A stretch of DNA of 64,000 bases from the NCBI GenBank assembly GCA_040830765.1, contig JBFOMH010000021.1, positions 98,716 to 162,715 on the forward strand, in the 5' to 3' direction. Shown piece by piece: positions 49,101 through 55,100 of the stretch. Source of the stretch: Puniceicoccaceae bacterium. Lineage in GTDB: Bacteria; Verrucomicrobiota; Verrucomicrobiia; Opitutales; Oceanipulchritudinaceae. The position numbers were made by a program. The first letter of the stretch is position 1; each line of letters begins with the position of its first letter.

Positions 49101-52100
49101 GATCATGACGGTCCTCTGCCGGGAGACTACCAATTCGGTCCAGAACGTCCGGACCTCCGCGTTCTCAATCGTTTGCAGAACCTGCTGATAGGCCTCGCTG
49201 GGATGAAAAATGAGTCCGGGACTGGGAATGAAACCGGCCAGGATCTGGCCAAAGGGCAAGCCTTCCTCACTCAAGGCCAGCCGGACCACGACGAGAATAA
49301 AGGCGACGACAATCAAGCCGACCATGGTTTTCAGGATATTCTCATAGATCCGTATTCCCCTGCCTCCGCTGCCGTAGAGAAAGGTCACCGCCATCACCAG
49401 GCCAAGAATGAGGCAGGAAATCAGCAGCTTGAATCCGAAACTGTCTCCCATTTCAGCAAGGCCGGGAAAGATATTCTCGGTCAGCGCCCCAAAAGCGAGG
49501 GAGTACTGGGGCAGGACAAAGACCATGTTGGCGGCCAGGGCGGCGAGGATCCAGCCCCAGGCAAGGACTGGGTTGATTCGTGTGCGCATGCTCTGGAAGG
49601 GACTTTCCCCTGTTGAAAGGGTGACGTAGCCGATGGCGGCGAGCATGATCACGCCGAGGATGATGGCCCCGGCCTGGACCCAGAGTACGGAATAACCACC
49701 CACAACCCCGAGGAACAAAGCTCCAGCCAGGGAGCCTCCCCCAAGGGTGATGGCGCTTTGCAGCCAGCCGGGTCCGGATAATTTGGCGTAGGTCCGGAAT
49801 CGGGCCCATCCGCTGGCATTTTCGACGTTTTGCAGTTCCTGAAGGGAGTCTTTCATCGGGAGGAGTGAGGAATAGGGGGTTAAACCGTTTGGTGGCTAGC
49901 TGTAAGGGATGAAGGAGGCCTCGCCAACCCAATAATCGCCTAATCGCTTGGCGTGGGCTGCCCGTGTTTCTGCTGGCATCCTCCATTTAATGCGTTATGA
50001 ACATTGAACCCATGGCTGGTTCATCAAAGAAAGTAATCCTCGCAGCCCTGATTGGCAATGGGCTCATCGCTATCACGAAGTTTATTGCCGCCGGACTGAC
50101 CCGCAGTTCCGCCATGTTGTCGGAGGCCATCCATTCCGTGGTCGATACAGGCAATCAGATCCTGCTGCTCTATGGCCTGAAGAAGTCAAAGCAGCCTGCT
50201 GACGCTGCTTATCCCTTCGGTTATGGGCGGGAGCTCTATTTCTGGAGCTTCATCGTGGCTATCATGATATTTGCCGTTGGGGCTGGTATTTCCACCTACG
50301 AGGGGATCCGCCATATTCTGCATCCCGAACCGGTGAAGAATCCCATGGTCAATTATGTTGTCCTGGGGCTGGCAATGATCTTCGAGGGCGCGGCCTGGTG
50401 GTATGCCTGGAAGGCTTTTGACGAGCACCGCGGGAGAAAGGGCTACTTGAAGGCCGTCCACGAGGGGAAGGACCCGACGATGTTTGTTGTCCTATTCGAG
50501 GACTCCGCAGCCATGCTGGGCCTGGTTGTGGCTTTCCTGGGGATCCTGCTCAGCGACGTGACCGGCATCCTCTACTTTGATGGAGCGGCCTCGGTAGTCA
50601 TCGGGCTGATCCTGGGCGGGACTGCCGCCTGGCTGGCCTACGAGACCAAGAGCCTCCTTATCGGGGAGAGTGCGGACCCGAAACTGGTCGAAGCTCTCAG
50701 GGCCATCGCGGTCGATTATCCGGAAATCACGACCGTCAACAAAGTGCTGACGATGCACATGGGGGCGGAGGACATCCTCGTCAATTTGAGTGTGGACTTT
50801 GCCGATGGCGTTCCCTCGGAGCGCGTGGAGCAGGTCATCGCCACCATCGACCGCAAGTTCAAGGAAACCAACCCGGCGATCAAGCGGCTCTTCATTGAGG
50901 CGGAGGCGATGCGCGGTTCCCCACCGCCGGCCTGACTTTCCCTCAGCGTTTTTCAGAGGAGCGCTGCAACCATTCGGCGTAGGCGGCCTCAACGGTCTCG
51001 CCGGCGGCGAGGTCGCGGGTCATGATGACCGCCTCCGTTTCGGGAGCCTTTAACCGGTATCCATTAATGCCGAGGAACATGTAGGCGGCCATGAATCCAA
51101 TGCGCTTGTTTCCATCAAGAAATGGATGGTTGTTCACCAATCCGTTTGTATAGGCCGCTGCCAATTCAAATAGAGATGGATCACCATAGTGATGGAGTTG
51201 CAACGGCCGGTTCAGGGCTGAGTCCAGCATGCCTTTGTCCCGTACACCCTCAAGACCACCAAAACGGGCCAGCAGTTCCTTGTGGACGGCGAGTAGACTT
51301 TCAGCTGACAGCCAGTATGGATCCTTCATTTGGCAAGTTCCCGCAGGGCATTACGGTACTCAGCCATACCTTCTTCGGCTACTTTCATAATTTCCTCAAA
51401 CCCAGGCTTCTCCGGCGTAATATGCAGGGAATCCTTGGGTGCCTTTGTGATGTACAGGGAGGCTCCCTCCTCAACGTTCATTGCCTGCAGTGCTTCCTTG
51501 GGCAGCACGATACCGAGGGAGTTGCCAATCTTGCGGACTTTTGTCTTCATTGCCATGATAATAACATATGTTATAACTATGGATTTGGTCAAGCCTCAAG
51601 GGGCTTGCGGATCGCGGAGGTAGCTTTACGTGATTCGTCAGGCCGGGACCAGGCCCGGGGAGAATGTCTGCCACGTCCCCTCCACGAGATTGCGGCTGTC
51701 GAGGCTGAAGGGCTTTGCTCCGCTGAGCCAGGATTCCATGCGGCCCTGGAAGCGGGAGACGGTGGCGGTGTCGGCAAGCTTGGCCTTGGTCCCGAGAATG
51801 ATGTCGCTGCTGTCGAGCAGGCGGCGCAGGTAGGGCATTTCGCGGAAGCGTTGGTGGCCGGCTTTGCGCACATCGAGAATGCCAATCGTCGAGGCTAGCT
51901 GGACCTCTCCATCCAGCTCCCGGGATTTGACCTGTTCCAGCATGTTAACCGGATCAGACAAGCCGGCCGGCTCGACAAGGATACGGTCCGGGCGCAGAGT
52001 CTCGACAAGCGTCCTCAGCCCGGAAGCCAAATCCGGGGCACCGGAACAGCAGAAGCATCCGCCGTTGGAGATCCTGAACAGGACCTTGCCAGGTGAATTG

Positions 52101-55100
52101 GCAGCTCCATGGGAAAGCCGGTCCGCCAGAAAGGGCTGGTTGTTGGTGTTGAGCAGCACTGCCCAGGTTTCATTGGACGGCGCTGATTTCAACAGTTCCA
52201 GGATAGTCGAGGTTTTCCCGGAACCCGGTCCACCCTGGACAAGGTGGACCGGTATGGGGGACAATTGAATCATGATAGCGCGAGGGCGGGAAGCTCGTAG
52301 TCCTCGGGGACGAACTTGTCCGTGTCGACGTCTTCCATCATTTCCTCGATGAATTCTTCTTCGGTGTCGGGCATGTCGTCCAGGTCATCCTCCATGCGAT
52401 CGAGCCAGGCGGCTTCCTTGGCTTCCATCTTGAGGCAGCCGGATTCGCTGGACTCGCGCATCAGGCGGATGGCTTCACGGGCAGCGGCAATGCCGGCAGC
52501 GTAGTGATTTTCTGACGACACGATGGCGTTGGCGATGGCGACGCTGCTTTCCGGCGTAATGATCATCGCCTGGGGATCAAGGCCGGCATCCGACTTGACG
52601 AGCCAGTTGCGCAGCTGCAGGGCCGCCTCCGGACCATCCTTGGAGGCCTCGTTGAAGAGACGGCAATCATAGATGAGCTGTTCCATGTAGCAGGTCGGGG
52701 CCATGCCGCCGAGGAGCTTGATGTTCTGGACCGACTCATTGGACCAGAGGTCGGCAGTGGCAGCCGCGAGGTTGCCCATCGGACTGAGGTGGGCACAAGC
52801 GGCGGTCTTGCCTTCCATGCTCATGGGGAAACCGGTGATGGCCTTGAGGATGGGGTTTTCATAACCACAATCCTTGCCGGGTCCGACGGCGCCGCACTCG
52901 TAGGCAACCAGCGATCGGACGGCCGTGACAGCCCGGACCACAGCGGCGAAGGAGCGCGGAATCATTTTCCGCTCCGCCAGCACCATGGCGGTGTTGCCGA
53001 ATCCGCAGGCGGTATCACCAGCGGCATAAACGCCGTGCTTATTGGCAATGGGGACAATGTGGTCCCAGAGGAACTTCATGTCCCTGACGCCCATGACGCA
53101 GAGCGAGAAGAGAACCTCGCGCAGGTCACCGTTGACGAGGGCATCGTCGTGTAGTTCCTTGCCGCCGACGCTCTCGATGCTGAGAAACTCGGCCCCTGCC
53201 TCGGCGGAACGTTCGAACAACTCCAGCATGGCCTCCCAGTAGCGACCGGACCGCATCAGGGGCGGGCGGACAAACTCCCGGTTGTCATTCGGAGTGGCCC
53301 GCAAGGTGGCCTTGAGACCGTACTTCTCATGGGCCGTCTCAATTCCTTCGAGCAGGATCTTGACGATATCCATCCCGAAGTCAGGGAACTCGGTCATGGG
53401 GGGAAGGGTCTCGAACTCGAGCATGACGCCTGGCGCTTCCAGCTCGGCCGCGCGAGTCAAGGCCTCGTTGACAATCTGCTGGTAGTGGCGCCTGACCTCG
53501 GGCATCGAGGCTGCCTCAATCTTGATGTCCGGCAGGGTGAAGTTCAGTTCCGGATAAACGGTTCCTCCACCGATGACCATGCCGTGGCGGGTGGTCACCG
53601 GGTTGGGGGAGACCCCGTAGATCAGCTTGTCCGGATCGGGGATAGCGAGGGCATTGTACTTCATTGAATTGTCCTCAGGCTGGCAGTACCGACTTGGCGA
53701 GATCCACAGCGCTGGCGGCATCCGAGGCGTAGCCATCCGCACCGATTTCATCGGCATAGGACTGGGTCACCGGCGCGCCGCCAATGACAATCTTCAGCTG
53801 CTTCCCTGCAGCCTTGATGGCGCTTACCGTTTCCCGCATCGCCGGCATCGTTGTGGTGAGAAGGGCGGACAGGCCGACAATGTCAGCCTCGTGCTCATCG
53901 ATAGCATCGACAAAGGCGGTTGGCGTCACATTGACCCCAAGGTCGATGACTTCGAATCCGGCACCCTTCCACATGGTGGCGACCAGGTTCTTGCCGATGT
54001 CGTGGCGGTCGCCCTCGACTGTCCCGATGATAGCCTTGTACTTCGGCTTGATACCCGCCTCGATCAGCTTGGGCTCGATGATCTTCATCGATTCCTTCAT
54101 CGCCCGGGCCGAAACCAGCATTTCCGGAACGAAAATTTCGTTGTTCTTAAACTTCTCGCCCACCACCGACATGGCTGGGATCAGTGCATCCTCGAGAAGC
54201 ACTTCGGGAGCAGTTCCTTCTTCCAGAAGGGCTGTGGTGAGAAGCTTGGCGTCCTTGCGGCGACCGTTAATGACAGAGGTTTTGAGGTCTTCGATATTAC
54301 TCATGGCTATATGATTTTTGTTAATGTTGTGCCATGAGGATAGCAGTTTGCCTGCTTCCGTTTCTTGTATGCTCGGCTGCTTGTTATGTAGATTCGTGTG
54401 AAAACCGCCAAGGGCTGACCCCTTTACTTTCTCGCATCTATGAGCACGGACTTTCTGTACAAAGTGCTTGGCCTGTCAGTAATGTATCTGCAGCAGAAGC
54501 CTTCCTGCTTTTGTCGGCAGACGCCACTCGGTAGGGGAGATGCTTTCGAGGGCTTCCCCGGTCTGCCAGTCCTTTACTGAACTGGCCGGTTGCTCTAACT
54601 TGAGCACCATTCCTGCAAAACCTTGGCGGTCCTCGATGACATCGATCTCAAGTGCCTTGCGGACGGGGATGTAGTGGAGCAGGGTAACCAATGTCTCACT
54701 GCCTTTTTGCATCGGGTAGACGCTGACGGAAACCGGGAGTCCGGCACCAATGGCGGGTTTGCCGATCAACCGTTCCATTACTACCTGCCAGATTTTCCGG
54801 ATAAAGACGCTGCCCGACTTCCGGTACTCCTTGAAGATGGGATCGCTAAATACGGTGACCGTACCATTGGTGGCCACGGCCGGAAATTCCGAGGTTTCCG
54901 TTGAGGCGGGCGTTTGGAAGTGGGAACAGAACTTGAAGTCAGACCGCCGGAAGTACGGCAGGACGCGGTCGATAAGGACTTCCCAGTCATCGCTGAAGGC
55001 ATAATGCATGCCTGCCTGGTAGAAAACCCGATCGCTGTCCGTCCATTCCTGCCCGATTGCGGGGCGTCCGTGCCAGTAGGTGGGGAAGTCAGGTGTCGAG

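Follow-up and report, generated by a model that had tools for sequence, protein, structure and literature searches.

Why does a glycan-degrading bacterium carry, just downstream of a run of glycosidase genes, a methyltransferase pair that resembles the methanol system of Methanosarcina? The window, a 64,000-nucleotide stretch of a Puniceicoccaceae genome (on contig C21), raises this question at 51638-54304 of the minus strand, where Pfam identifies the three-gene unit mtaC-mtaB-cobW. The initial annotation had tied the pair to its glycosidase neighbours and had taken MtaB itself for a sugar-linked part. We favour, with a probability of about 0.55, a hub built on a single corrinoid protein, in which MtaB would serve methanol and URO-D enzymes O-methyl sugars, mtaC-mtaB-cobW being an AraC-controlled arm of this hub, the other parts of which would have moved to contig C11.

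The mtaC-mtaB-cobW unit

Table 1. Positions of the unit, its putative operator and the upstream genes in the window.
Feature	Position	Strand	Basis or context
mtaC, corrinoid (B12) carrier protein, 209 aa (predicted)	53675..54304	-	Pfam PF02310 (B12-binding, 1.6e-31) + PF02607 (B12-binding_2, 1.6e-20)
mtaB, zinc-type methanol:corrinoid methyltransferase, bacterial clade, 464 aa (predicted)	52270..53664	-	Pfam PF12176 (3e-170, profile 3-460 of 460)
cobW, short COG0523/CobW-type G3E GTPase, 211 aa (predicted)	51638..52273	-	Pfam PF02492 (cobW/G3E GTPase domain, 4.8e-24)
operator-like direct repeat TACA-N17-TACAAGA	54363..54390	-	aligned mtaC upstream regions
GHL6/fucosidase-like gene	54476-56482	-	upstream of mtaC
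GH2 gene	56910-60905	-	upstream of mtaC
GH38 gene	60952-63423	-	upstream of mtaC

The gene identities proposed earlier are confirmed by Pfam. The two B12-binding domains of the first gene identify its product as MtaC, and its layout, a cap domain, a Rossmann B12 domain and a D-R-H-D-I-G His-on motif (His101), is that of a predicted His-on B12 carrier. D99, H101 and G104 are invariant in an alignment of 22 relatives. Among solved structures the best match is 1Y80 (6.5e-54), itself described as a predicted cobalamin-binding protein, and the top NCBIfam match is the MtgC model, at 192 bits, under the cut-off of that model. MtaC is the single free-standing corrinoid protein found in the genome, as had been stated for its many methyltransferases.

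MtaB, of which one copy was found in the genome, matches 2I2X_A over residues 32-487 (phmmer, 8e-89) and has, in the alignment, residues identical to the M. barkeri zinc ligands Glu164, Cys220 and Cys269. The protein is accordingly placed, by sequence, among the zinc enzymes of the methanol:corrinoid family, although it scores 435 bits against the NCBIfam MtaB equivalog, below the cut-off of 720. Its 80 relatives (53-99% identity) come mostly from Verrucomicrobiota, Planctomycetota and Acidobacteriota. The open reading frame comprises 495 aa, reaching 53757 and overlapping mtaC by 83 nt; because the Pfam match and all relatives begin at Met32, the start most likely lies at 53664.

mtaB and cobW overlap by 4 nt, at the stop of the former and the start of the latter. 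The cobW product, which has the GCFCCSG metal motif and no C-terminal domain, shares 47% identity across 199 aa with the 355-aa CobW encoded after mtaB in the related locus L009, and stops where the C-terminal domain of the latter starts. We regard it as a predicted COG0523 metallochaperone that probably loads zinc; passages of PMC2770081 describe co-localisation of mtaA/B/C with COG0523 subfamily 13.

Operator and glycosidase neighbours

The operator-like repeat lies 58 nt upstream of the mtaC start, inside the 171-nt gap that follows the GHL6 stop. An alignment of this region with its counterparts before mtaC in 10 relatives, nine of which have an AraC_396-type gene upstream of mtaC, shows little or no variation in the TAC and TACAA cores; no such gene was detected upstream of mtaC in L008 or L016. 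A strict genome-wide scan gave 14 matches, about the number expected by chance, and only the one at mtaC precedes a gene of the system. mtaC keeps a conserved, putative AraC-type operator of its own. Neither GHL6 nor this GH2 adjoins mtaC in any of the 80 related loci, L008 with its 99% identical MtaB included. On our reading the upstream GHL6, GH2 and GH38 genes are neighbours outside the unit, and with its own operator and no shared glycosidases a tie of the pair to them finds no support. Contigs from RNA libraries cover cobW, mtaB and mtaC at 99% identity or more, and read-through from the glycosidase genes is possible because the X1 RNA-library contig 53278-54667 bridges the GHL6 3' end and mtaC, even though such contigs cannot prove a single transcript and the library may contain DNA.

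Partner genes on other contigs

That the system is distributed over C21 and C11 proved correct. C11 holds an AraC regulator, four MtaA-like URO-D paralogues, the only DUF1638 copy of the genome, a RACo activase and two fused MocDEF-like oxygenases, which agrees with the previous gene list except in one point: no PocR sensor domain was found in the 396-aa AraC protein, described as PocR-AraC, the NCBIfam PocR match being to its HTH part only. RACo and DUF1638 form a predicted reactivation module; according to passages of PMC12478193, RamA and DUF1638 serve a hub of one corrinoid protein and many methyltransferases in aerobic bacteria. Both halves of the system are contiguous in the close relative L009 (MtaB 87%), where MtaC-MtaB-CobW directly follow the orthologue of C11:9812 (78%) and that of the AraC gene (71%), and the one-operon versions that the initial annotation had announced, which include a sugar MFS porter as well as a fused MocDEF-like oxygenase, were seen in L048, L059, L062, L072 and L086.

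Our recount over 80 MtaB loci (MtaC 57, AraC 40, URO-D 37, RACo 32, DUF1638 32, homocysteine-methyltransferase-like 15, fused oxygenase 11, sugar MFS 10) is close to the earlier one over 78. The 48 well-flanked loci, those in which MtaB has 5 kb or more on either side, gave MtaC in 40, URO-D in 32, AraC in 26, and RACo and DUF1638 in 23 each. Across an order sample of 81 genomes, scored by matches to RACo, URO-D and MtaB, two or more URO-D matches occur in 17/17 RACo-positive genomes versus 3/64 RACo-negative ones, and all seven MtaB-positive genomes are RACo-positive. URO-D paralogues accompany the corrinoid machinery.

The genome itself has ten URO-D matches. The one on C5 (355 bits) is HemE, rightly named before as the true decarboxylase, and the paralogues reach at most 86 bits against NCBIfam MtaA/CmuA, where the cut-off is 235. 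An H-x-C motif had been reported for five of the eight MtaA-like paralogues; in our alignment four keep it, and the fifth, C11:10899, has H-S-D at the MtaA zinc position. The two fused oxygenases (FA-desaturase/Rieske/FNR) adjoin URO-D paralogues on C11, and their MocE-family ferredoxin domain scores 116 bits in NCBIfam, for a cut-off of 136.

Sugar genes beside the URO-D paralogues

That MtaA-like paralogues recur beside sugar-handling genes holds up. URO-Ds of the C11:3282 type are found in 22 of the 80 loci and directly adjoin a same-strand Sugar_tr MFS porter in 10 of them, in at least four gene orders, six of these ten cases being from closely related Opitutaceae. All 11 sugar-adjacent URO-Ds belong to one clade (SH-aLRT 99, quick tree), and the gene order MocDEF-AldEpim-URO-D-AraC is kept in this genome, L031 and L071. 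As annotated, the C13 paralogue lies next to the rhamnose mutarotase gene RhaM (PF05336, 3.5e-26), to which it is translationally coupled; a URO-D_C13 with RhaM also follows MtaC-MtaB in L043, and RhaM adjoins URO-D homologues in 7 of 29 further loci. The GH38 gene beside the C18 paralogue was likewise seen, and since the genome is rich in glycoside hydrolases, some adjacencies to GH38, GH2 or TonB receptors may be due to chance. MtaB itself does not appear to be the sugar-linked part: its zinc site is of the methanol type, only 14 of the 48 well-flanked loci have a sugar or oxygenase marker, and genome G041, in which no MtaB was found, has a URO-D (55%)-Sugar_tr-GH2 unit along with MtaC and RACo. 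Judged from gene context, the sugar link is real and runs via the URO-D paralogues rather than MtaB.

Model of a URO-D enzyme with MtaC

An aldose epimerase and a MocDEF-like oxygenase accompany C11:3282 here, and a sugar MFS porter does so in relatives. The AF2 model of this protein (pLDDT 89) has MtaA 4AY7 as its top Foldseek match (3e-13). In complex with MtaC it scored 0.84, the best control giving 0.00; 116 of 157 solved complexes reach this mark, as do 2 of 215 mismatches, counts that hold only roughly because our own alignments were used. At least 97% of contacts are common to the runs, partner pLDDT is 92 or more, and the modelled interface joins the D-x-H loop of MtaC (97-101) to the invariant D-F-G-T-Q of the URO-D. 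The model supports docking of the C11:3282 URO-D onto MtaC. Part of the score may come from solved B12-domain/TIM-barrel complexes, e.g. 2I2X, that the predictor has memorised.

Proposed mechanism and alternatives

We propose that mtaC-mtaB-cobW is a self-standing AraC-controlled operon and one arm of a corrinoid methyl-transfer hub, the remaining parts of which would have split off onto C11. MtaB would exchange methyl groups between methanol and Co(I)/CH3-Co(III) on MtaC, and several MtaA-like URO-D methyltransferases would serve the same lone MtaC. The C11:10899 and C11:18111 types, which take the 'MtaA position' in relatives, most likely hand the methyl on to an acceptor, presumably not coenzyme M, whereas the C11:3282 and C13 types most likely draw it from O-methylated sugars. 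There the ether oxygen would be polarised by a metal bound at a conserved His-x-Cys site, in the way that zinc polarises methanol in MtaB, and the fused oxygenases may do the same demethylation job when oxygen is present. On this reading URO-D enzymes probably demethylate O-methyl sugars. We know of no corrinoid O-demethylase that cleaves an alkyl (sugar) methyl ether, and a literature search found neither a report of such cleavage nor a published description of such a hub; if true, sugar demethylation by such enzymes would be a job not previously shown. MocDEF reportedly carries out the demethylation step of rhizopine catabolism (attributed to Bahar et al. 1998). Passages of PMC3538637 involve the mocDEF cluster in the catabolism of rhizopine, an O-methyl cyclitol; those of PMC10418091 place O-, S- and halogen-demethylases within the UroD superfamily. 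The corrinoid O-demethylases so far described act on aryl ethers (PMC3727330).

Plain methanol use, which we consider rather unlikely, would have MtaB, MtaC and an MtaA-like URO-D (C11:10899 or 18111 type), reactivated by RACo with DUF1638, feed C1 metabolism with the methyl groups of methanol from pectin-type methyl esters or the surroundings; the other URO-Ds would be methoxy-aromatic/methylthiol or non-corrinoid enzymes with coincidental sugar neighbours. This agrees with a zinc site identical to that of methanol MtaB, with compact MtaC-MtaB-URO-D trios (L025, L056, L050, L055, L073), with the 34 of 48 well-flanked loci that have no sugar or oxygenase marker, and with a genome that encodes MtaA-position URO-D paralogues, two MTHFR, FTHFS and, as a ready methanol source, two CE8 pectin methylesterases. 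Passages of PMC10805028 interpret bacterial mtaB expression in peat as methanol use. In the order sample, CE8 occurs in 3 of 7 MtaB-positive versus 8 of 74 MtaB-negative genomes, but this leaves four MtaB-positive genomes without a match. Nor does methanol use explain why, across several phyla and in several gene orders, URO-Ds of particular clades are found time and again with a sugar porter, an aldose epimerase, RhaM, GH2 or demethylase-type oxygenases, or why one corrinoid protein should have eight paralogues to serve it.

We give less credence still to MtaB acting in reverse as outlet of the hub, where URO-Ds charge MtaC with methyl groups taken off sugar ethers and MtaB releases these from CH3-Co(III) by hydrolysis, as methanol, a net B12-dependent methyl-ether hydrolase with no need for folate. 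The methanol reaction is near equilibrium, and reversibility of M. barkeri MtaB has reportedly been described (Sauer and Thauer 1997), yet no in vivo precedent is known. The genome has no stand-alone pterin-binding (PF00809) or homocysteine (PF02574) module, both being found only inside MetH, and no 'long' MtaA-like URO-D; in the order sample, such a long URO-D (190-222 bits) is present in 8 of the 10 RACo-positive genomes that have no MtaB match and absent from 5 of 7 MtaB-positive ones. However, the sample is small and its genomes are related, G034 and G061 have neither MtaB match nor long URO-D, and one-operon loci of Opitutaceae hold both.

It is very improbable that the hub is fed by methanol mainly to methylate homocysteine, as a split methionine synthase. 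Stand-alone PF02574 genes do occur in 15 of the 80 loci, and a number of them (L031, L071, L044, L050) are placed between AraC and RACo; MtgBCDE is a precedent in passages of PMC12478193, but this genome has a complete MetH and no such stand-alone gene, and a catabolic methyl flux would be too large for methionine demand. Least credible is that MtaB-MtaC itself acts on methylated glycans, co-expressed with GHL6, GH2 and GH38, for the common strand, the short gap, the bridging contig and the second GH38 beside the C18 paralogue are outweighed by the conserved operator before mtaC, the methanol-type active site and the absence of common glycosidase neighbours from all 80 loci.

Comparison with known systems

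The single-corrinoid hub that we favour resembles MtaB-MtaC-MtaA of Methanosarcina (PDB 2I2X, MtaA 4AY7) in the MtaB fold and zinc ligands, the His-on corrinoid protein adjoining MtaB, a second methyltransferase of URO-D fold, an ATP-dependent activase and a COG0523 GTPase in the cluster. It differs in its host, a glycan-degrading bacterium equipped with oxygenases and a respiratory chain, in using RACo with DUF1638 instead of RamM, in that ComA, a marker of coenzyme M synthesis, was not found in the genome, in having eight divergent URO-D paralogues and a cluster split over two contigs, and in an MtaB that stays under the methanogen equivalog cut-off. With the three-component corrinoid O-demethylases (MT I, corrinoid protein, MT II and activating enzyme; Desulfitobacterium, Acetobacterium, Methermicoccus Mto) it shares a RACo-type activase, many paralogous methyltransferases per genome, one corrinoid protein as methyl shuttle and, putatively, substrate-specific ether-cleaving methyltransferases of the UroD superfamily. 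Those systems act on aryl methyl ethers, with tetrahydrofolate or H4MPT as acceptor, whereas here the context (porter, mutarotases, GH2) points to sugars, MtaB belongs to the set and oxygenases are co-encoded.

The MtgBCDE hub of aerobic marine Alphaproteobacteria, which handles glycine-betaine and methionine in passages of PMC12478193, likewise has a single corrinoid protein common to several methyltransferases in non-anaerobes and a RamA/RACo plus DUF1638 reactivation pair. In contrast, no MttB-family (MtgB) gene was found in our genome, stand-alone pterin and homocysteine modules are missing from it, and the donors would be methanol and, probably, sugars. Finally, the proposed task, O-methyl removal from a sugar-like molecule, is that of the P450 on 6-O-methyl-galactose (PMC6292453) and of MocDEF; unlike these oxygenases, which release formaldehyde, the module in the window is predicted to be a methyl-transfer system that does not need oxygen.

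Results

The three minus-strand genes of the window

The gene identities and the location that the initial annotation had given the module, with MtaC, MtaB and CobW downstream of fucosidase-like, GH2 and GH38 genes, are borne out by Pfam and by matches to the solved structures 2I2X and 1Y80; the unit is of the MtaB/MtaC kind. The GHL6/fucosidase-like, GH2 and GH38 genes are on the minus strand as well. The closest solved relative of the mtaC product is 1Y80, a predicted cobalamin-binding protein (6.5e-54), and D99, H101 and G104 of its D-x-H-x-x-G motif are unchanged across 22 sequences. 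MtaB aligns with M. barkeri MtaB (2I2X_A) over 456 residues (8e-89) and is identical to it at Glu164, Cys220 and Cys269 (M. barkeri numbering), which we take to be the zinc ligands of that enzyme. As called, the mtaB reading frame overlaps mtaC by 83 nt; since the Pfam match and all relatives start at Met32, position 53664 is the likely start, which leaves a gap of 10 nt after the end of mtaC. Against the NCBIfam equivalog for methanogen MtaB the protein reaches 435.3 bits, below the cut-off of 720, and represents a distinct bacterial clade for which we infer methanol specificity without taking it as assured.

The cobW start overlaps the mtaB stop by 4 nt. Window CobW ends at 211 aa and misses the C-terminal CobW domain (the orthologue in L009, the locus of a relative, has 355 aa), and no remnant of this domain lies downstream of cobW, where a MazE-Doc pair is found instead. 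That COG0523 genes adjoin mtaA, mtaB or mtaC is a known pattern, described in passages of PMC2770081. In locus L008 of a near-identical relative, the CobW-like gene (5121-5747) is only 46% identical to window 51638-52273, while its flanks match far more closely (MtaB 99%, MtaC 92%, Fic 96%) and the genes upstream differ, which makes the locus a mosaic; its Fic gene likewise follows a short CobW.

Features of the window and of contig C11 of the same genome
Feature	Location	Strand	Description
mtaC	53675-54304	minus	209 aa; B12-binding_2 cap and B12-binding Rossmann domain; motif D-R-H-D-I-G
mtaB	52270-53757 (ORF); likely start 53664	minus	PF12176, 3e-170, profile positions 3-460 of 460
cobW (COG0523/CobW-type GTPase)	51638-52273	minus	211 aa; COG0523 metallochaperone family; G3E domain PF02492, 4.8e-24; GCFCCSG (CxCC metal motif)
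MazE/AbrB-type antitoxin	51326-51592	minus	PF04014, 2.7e-9; directly after the short cobW
Doc/Fic toxin	50943-51329	minus	128 aa; second gene of the MazE-Doc pair
Operator-like site	54363-54390		58 nt before the mtaC start; kept although the AraC gene is now on another contig
Contig-end block	C11; URO-D 3282-4541		Fused FA-desaturase/Rieske/FNR oxygenase (cut by the contig end), aldose 1-epimerase, URO-D, divergent AraC
Esterase	C11		Among the genes of the 20-kb stretch
URO-D	C11:9812-10882		Divergent from the 396-aa AraC gene
URO-D	C11:10899-11990		Divergent from DUF1638, RACo and a UxaE-like gene
URO-D	C11:18111-19217		Divergent from a second fused oxygenase (84% identical to the first)

The window genes and C11 as probable halves of one system

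MtaB, the free corrinoid protein, DUF1638 and RACo (with Raco_middle, RACo_C_ter and a weak Fer2 match) are each encoded once in the genome (97% complete, 40 contigs), which also has ten URO-D matches, the true HemE among them. The system genes on C11 all lie inside 20 kb, and the following 30 kb hold an SSF transporter, four sulfatases, GH88, two GH78, GH106 and GH5. The PocR sensor domain formerly ascribed to the AraC regulator was not found.

In L009, whose MtaB is 87% identical, orthologues of the C11:9812 URO-D (78%) and of the 396-aa AraC protein (71%) stand directly upstream of MtaC-MtaB-CobW. We searched 80 related MtaB loci by tblastn with this genome's proteins in two rounds, not counting matches to less than 50% of the query (40% in the search of 29 further loci for RhaM beside URO-D homologues) and leaving out URO-D fragments shorter than 250 aa or with stops; alignment A2 was made without L029 and L085 (in-frame stop). 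The first round gave MtaC in 57 loci, AraC in 40, URO-D in 37 and RACo and DUF1638 in 32 each; the fused oxygenase (11 loci) and a short CobW (6 loci) were less frequent. In the second, 15 loci had a homocysteine-methyltransferase domain standing by itself, 13 had DUF6580 and 10 a Sugar_tr MFS porter. All these counts are lower bounds, since the sequence on one side of MtaB falls short of 5 kb in 32 loci. Where both flanks reach 5 kb or more (48 loci), MtaC is present in 40, URO-D in 32, AraC in 26 and RACo and DUF1638 in 23 each, and MtaB stands alone in 8; in 41 of the 80 loci MtaB has MtaC immediately upstream. The genes of the window and those of C11 are most likely the halves of one system, probably a corrinoid hub in which a single MtaC would be served by MtaB and several URO-D methyltransferases and reactivated by RACo and DUF1638.

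Two arrangements in relatives extend beyond this set. DUF6580 (about 195 aa), absent from the window, directly follows mtaB in 6 of the loci that carry it (L053:11407-11997, L043:11407-11985 and 11 more). In L011 (4840-7999), FdhD and a formate-dehydrogenase-like molybdopterin oxidoreductase stand immediately upstream of AraC-MtaC-MtaB-URO-D, a hint that the hub may be linked to the oxidation of C1 units.

Operator and transcription

The pattern TAC[A/C]-N17-TACAA is common to the mtaC upstream regions of 11 genomes. A genome-wide scan with its strict form gave 14 matches, about the number expected by chance, of which the mtaC site alone is relevant; the intergenic regions of C11 lack the strict pattern, and AATACTGCC lies upstream of both the C11:9812 and the DUF1638 starts. 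The conserved operator argues for mtaC having a promoter of its own. Sigma-70 promoter and terminator predictions across 50800-57000 did not exceed those in shuffled sequence, and no cobalamin riboswitch was detected by Rfam in the window or in C11:1-20000, where the sole match is a TPP riboswitch at window 1398-1520 (minus strand, 63.9 bits).

Contigs from RNA libraries (four runs of one study) span cobW, mtaB and mtaC at 99% identity or above, with DNA carry-over possible. One of them (X1) runs from mtaB through mtaC into the 3' end of the glycosidase gene GHL6, while another (X3) stops at 54318, 14 nt upstream of the mtaC start, and so points the opposite way; as contigs, these data convey neither transcript ends nor strand nor level and cannot settle read-through from GHL6. 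The tie of the module to the adjoining glycosidases that had been proposed finds no support, given that neither GHL6 nor this GH2 stands beside mtaC in any of the 80 loci, including L008 with its 99% identical MtaB, and that the operator is conserved.

The URO-D paralogues belong to the corrinoid machinery

All eight MtaA-like paralogues score 18-86 bits against the MtaA/CmuA family models, below the cut-offs of 235-600, and a protein-atlas lookup returned generic URO-D clusters only. In an alignment with 25% mean column identity, the H-x-C zinc motif is present in four of the eight (C11:3282, C11:9812 and those on contigs C18 and C13), C11:10899 and C11:18111 have H-x-D, and the remaining two have neither; within the C11:3282 clade, H307 is invariant and C309 nearly so. 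C11:10899 is the sole paralogue that phmmer aligned to MtaA (1.3e-6). Of 81 genomes drawn evenly from the order, 7 have MtaB and 17 have RACo, with RACo present in every MtaB-positive genome, and at least two URO-D matches are found in 17 of 17 RACo-positive versus 3 of 64 RACo-negative genomes, counts that, these genomes being related, do not amount to a statistical test.

The structure model of the C11:3282 protein (pLDDT 89) has MtaA (4AY7, 3e-13) as its nearest solved fold. Its complex model with MtaC reached 0.84 against 0.00 for the best control, a mark attained by 116 of 157 solved complexes and 2 of 215 mismatches, although these calibration counts hold only roughly because our own alignments were used. 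Between runs, 97% or more of the contacts are reproduced (partner pLDDT at least 92), and the D-x-H and LLTTTMP loops of MtaC lie against the invariant D-F-G-T-Q segment of the URO-D. The model supports a predicted docking of this URO-D on MtaC, and its pass may owe something to likeness with B12-domain/TIM-barrel complexes that have already been solved.

The link to sugars runs through the URO-D paralogues

The C11:3282 clade occurs in 22 of the 80 loci and in 10 of these stands directly beside a same-strand Sugar_tr porter (PF00083, 3e-115 in L048). These pairs show at least four gene orders and are spread over Acidobacteriota, Opitutaceae and further Verrucomicrobiota. A quick maximum-likelihood search with IQ-TREE groups all of the 11 URO-Ds that adjoin a porter or an epimerase in this single clade (SH-aLRT 99), the C18, C34 and C26 paralogues and HemE being long branches of unsure placement. 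Two relatives (L031, L071) share with this genome the block made up of oxygenase, epimerase, URO-D and a divergent AraC; in a third (L015) all four are on the same strand, and in Acidobacteriota a PhyH-type dioxygenase replaces the fused oxygenase. One genome in which no MtaB was found (G041) has a compact unit of URO-D (55%), Sugar_tr and GH2 and, elsewhere, URO-D, MtaC, DUF1638 and RACo.

Translational coupling, by an overlap of 4 nt, joins the C13 paralogue to an L-rhamnose mutarotase gene (RhaM, PF05336, 3.5e-26); the pair (C13:152039-153420, or L004:8037-9421) lies between pantothenate and nuo genes. Such a pair also follows MtaC-MtaB-DUF6580 in L043, and in a further 29 loci from the class RhaM stands next to a URO-D homologue 7 times, with a single genus accounting for five. 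Mutarotases and porters of these types act on free monosaccharides. That two distinct URO-D clades are each paired with a mutarotase or a porter is hard to ascribe to chance. The interpretation in the initial annotation is borne out in part: there is such a system and it is linked to sugars, by way of the URO-D paralogues and the MtaC they share, and not by way of MtaB or the adjoining glycosidases.

The C26 paralogue directly follows a gene of the nucleoside phosphorylase superfamily (PNP_UDP_1; C26, L006:7267-9228). As MTA nucleosidases are members of this family, an S-methyl sugar, e.g. methylthioribose, might be its donor.

Discussion

We give roughly even odds to the reading that the hub removes methyl groups from sugars. 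Glycans of algae, plants and microbes commonly contain O-methylated sugars (methyl-rhamnose, -fucose, -galactose, -mannose and -glucuronate), at which degradation is blocked.

As to MtaB itself, the conserved zinc site and the long stretches identical to its archaeal counterpart speak for a substrate other than a sugar, namely methanol or, in the reverse direction, water. In compact MtaC-MtaB-URO-D clusters of other phyla, the 'MtaA position' is held by the C11:10899 and C11:18111 types; together with the alignment of C11:10899 to MtaA, this means that a full methanol system can be assembled from genes of this genome. Given this complete set and the two CE8 pectin methylesterases, two MTHFR and FTHFS also encoded, methanol uptake is the simplest role for MtaB. 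The co-occurrence of CE8 with MtaB is ambiguous (3 of 7 MtaB-positive versus 8 of 74 MtaB-negative genomes).

A reverse role of MtaB, in which methanol would be released from CH3-Co(III), is hinted at by the lack of another recognisable methyl outlet in this genome and by a loosely inverse pattern among the sampled genomes of the order: of the 10 RACo-positive genomes that lack an MtaB match, 8 have a 'long' URO-D (190-222 bits), which is missing from 5 of the 7 MtaB-positive ones. Opitutaceae operons hold MtaB and the long URO-D together. The search of the genome found no stand-alone pterin- or homocysteine-binding module and no MttB-family gene, and ComA (PF02679), the sole coenzyme M marker searched, had no match. 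As to a methylcorrinoid:tetrahydrofolate methyltransferase II, no stand-alone Pterin_bind protein was found, and one of the URO-D type is not distinguishable by sequence. Pterin_bind (PF00809) matches inside MetH only, and no folP-type dihydropteroate synthase was found, which may reflect folate auxotrophy or an assembly gap. Within a rhamnosidase/sulfatase island of C11 (47985-50648; L088:16985-17977, L089:386-2648), a GCV_T-like folate-binding protein adjoins a DUF5981-MTHFR fusion and an AraC gene, a layout reminiscent of the tetrahydrofolate-dependent LigM-MetF demethylase pairing; this pair could be a third route of methyl removal or one that oxidises methyl-THF.

Joined to sugar demethylation, the reverse role would yield a folate- and oxygen-independent 'methyl-ether hydrolase' for carbohydrates, which we consider improbable as a whole. 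URO-D enzymes would shift the O-methyl groups of imported algal or plant sugars (e.g. methyl-rhamnose) to the single corrinoid protein, MtaB run backwards would free them as methanol, and the co-encoded MocDEF-like oxygenases would serve as the aerobic alternative. 

If the URO-D/MtaC hub does remove methyl groups from sugars, whatever the direction of MtaB, this would explain how glycan specialists among Verrucomicrobiota, Planctomycetota and Acidobacteriota handle methylated sugars without O2, and would link their polysaccharide turnover to the supply of vitamin B12. Metagenomic mtaB and 'MtaA-like' genes, now read as methanol or methoxy-aromatic methylotrophy, would have to be reinterpreted, the bacterial MtaB clade being already counted as methanol methylotrophy in metagenomic surveys, as passages of PMC10805028 have it. 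The family of the C11:3282 protein is large (590 cluster representatives match it at E of at most 1e-30), and the idea is testable with few recombinant proteins.

A search of full-text literature returned no paper on corrinoid-dependent carbohydrate demethylation; the carbohydrate demethylases in the literature searched are oxygenases only, an example being the P450 of PMC6292453. The UroD superfamily includes O-, S- and halogen-demethylases, according to passages of PMC10418091. Among known systems, the three-component O-demethylases of anaerobes resemble the hub in architecture, with the corrinoid protein and a RACo-type activase both present here. MtgBCDE of aerobic marine bacteria, as described in parts of PMC12478193, likewise combines one corrinoid protein with many methyltransferases, and has RamA and DUF1638 as in the hub.
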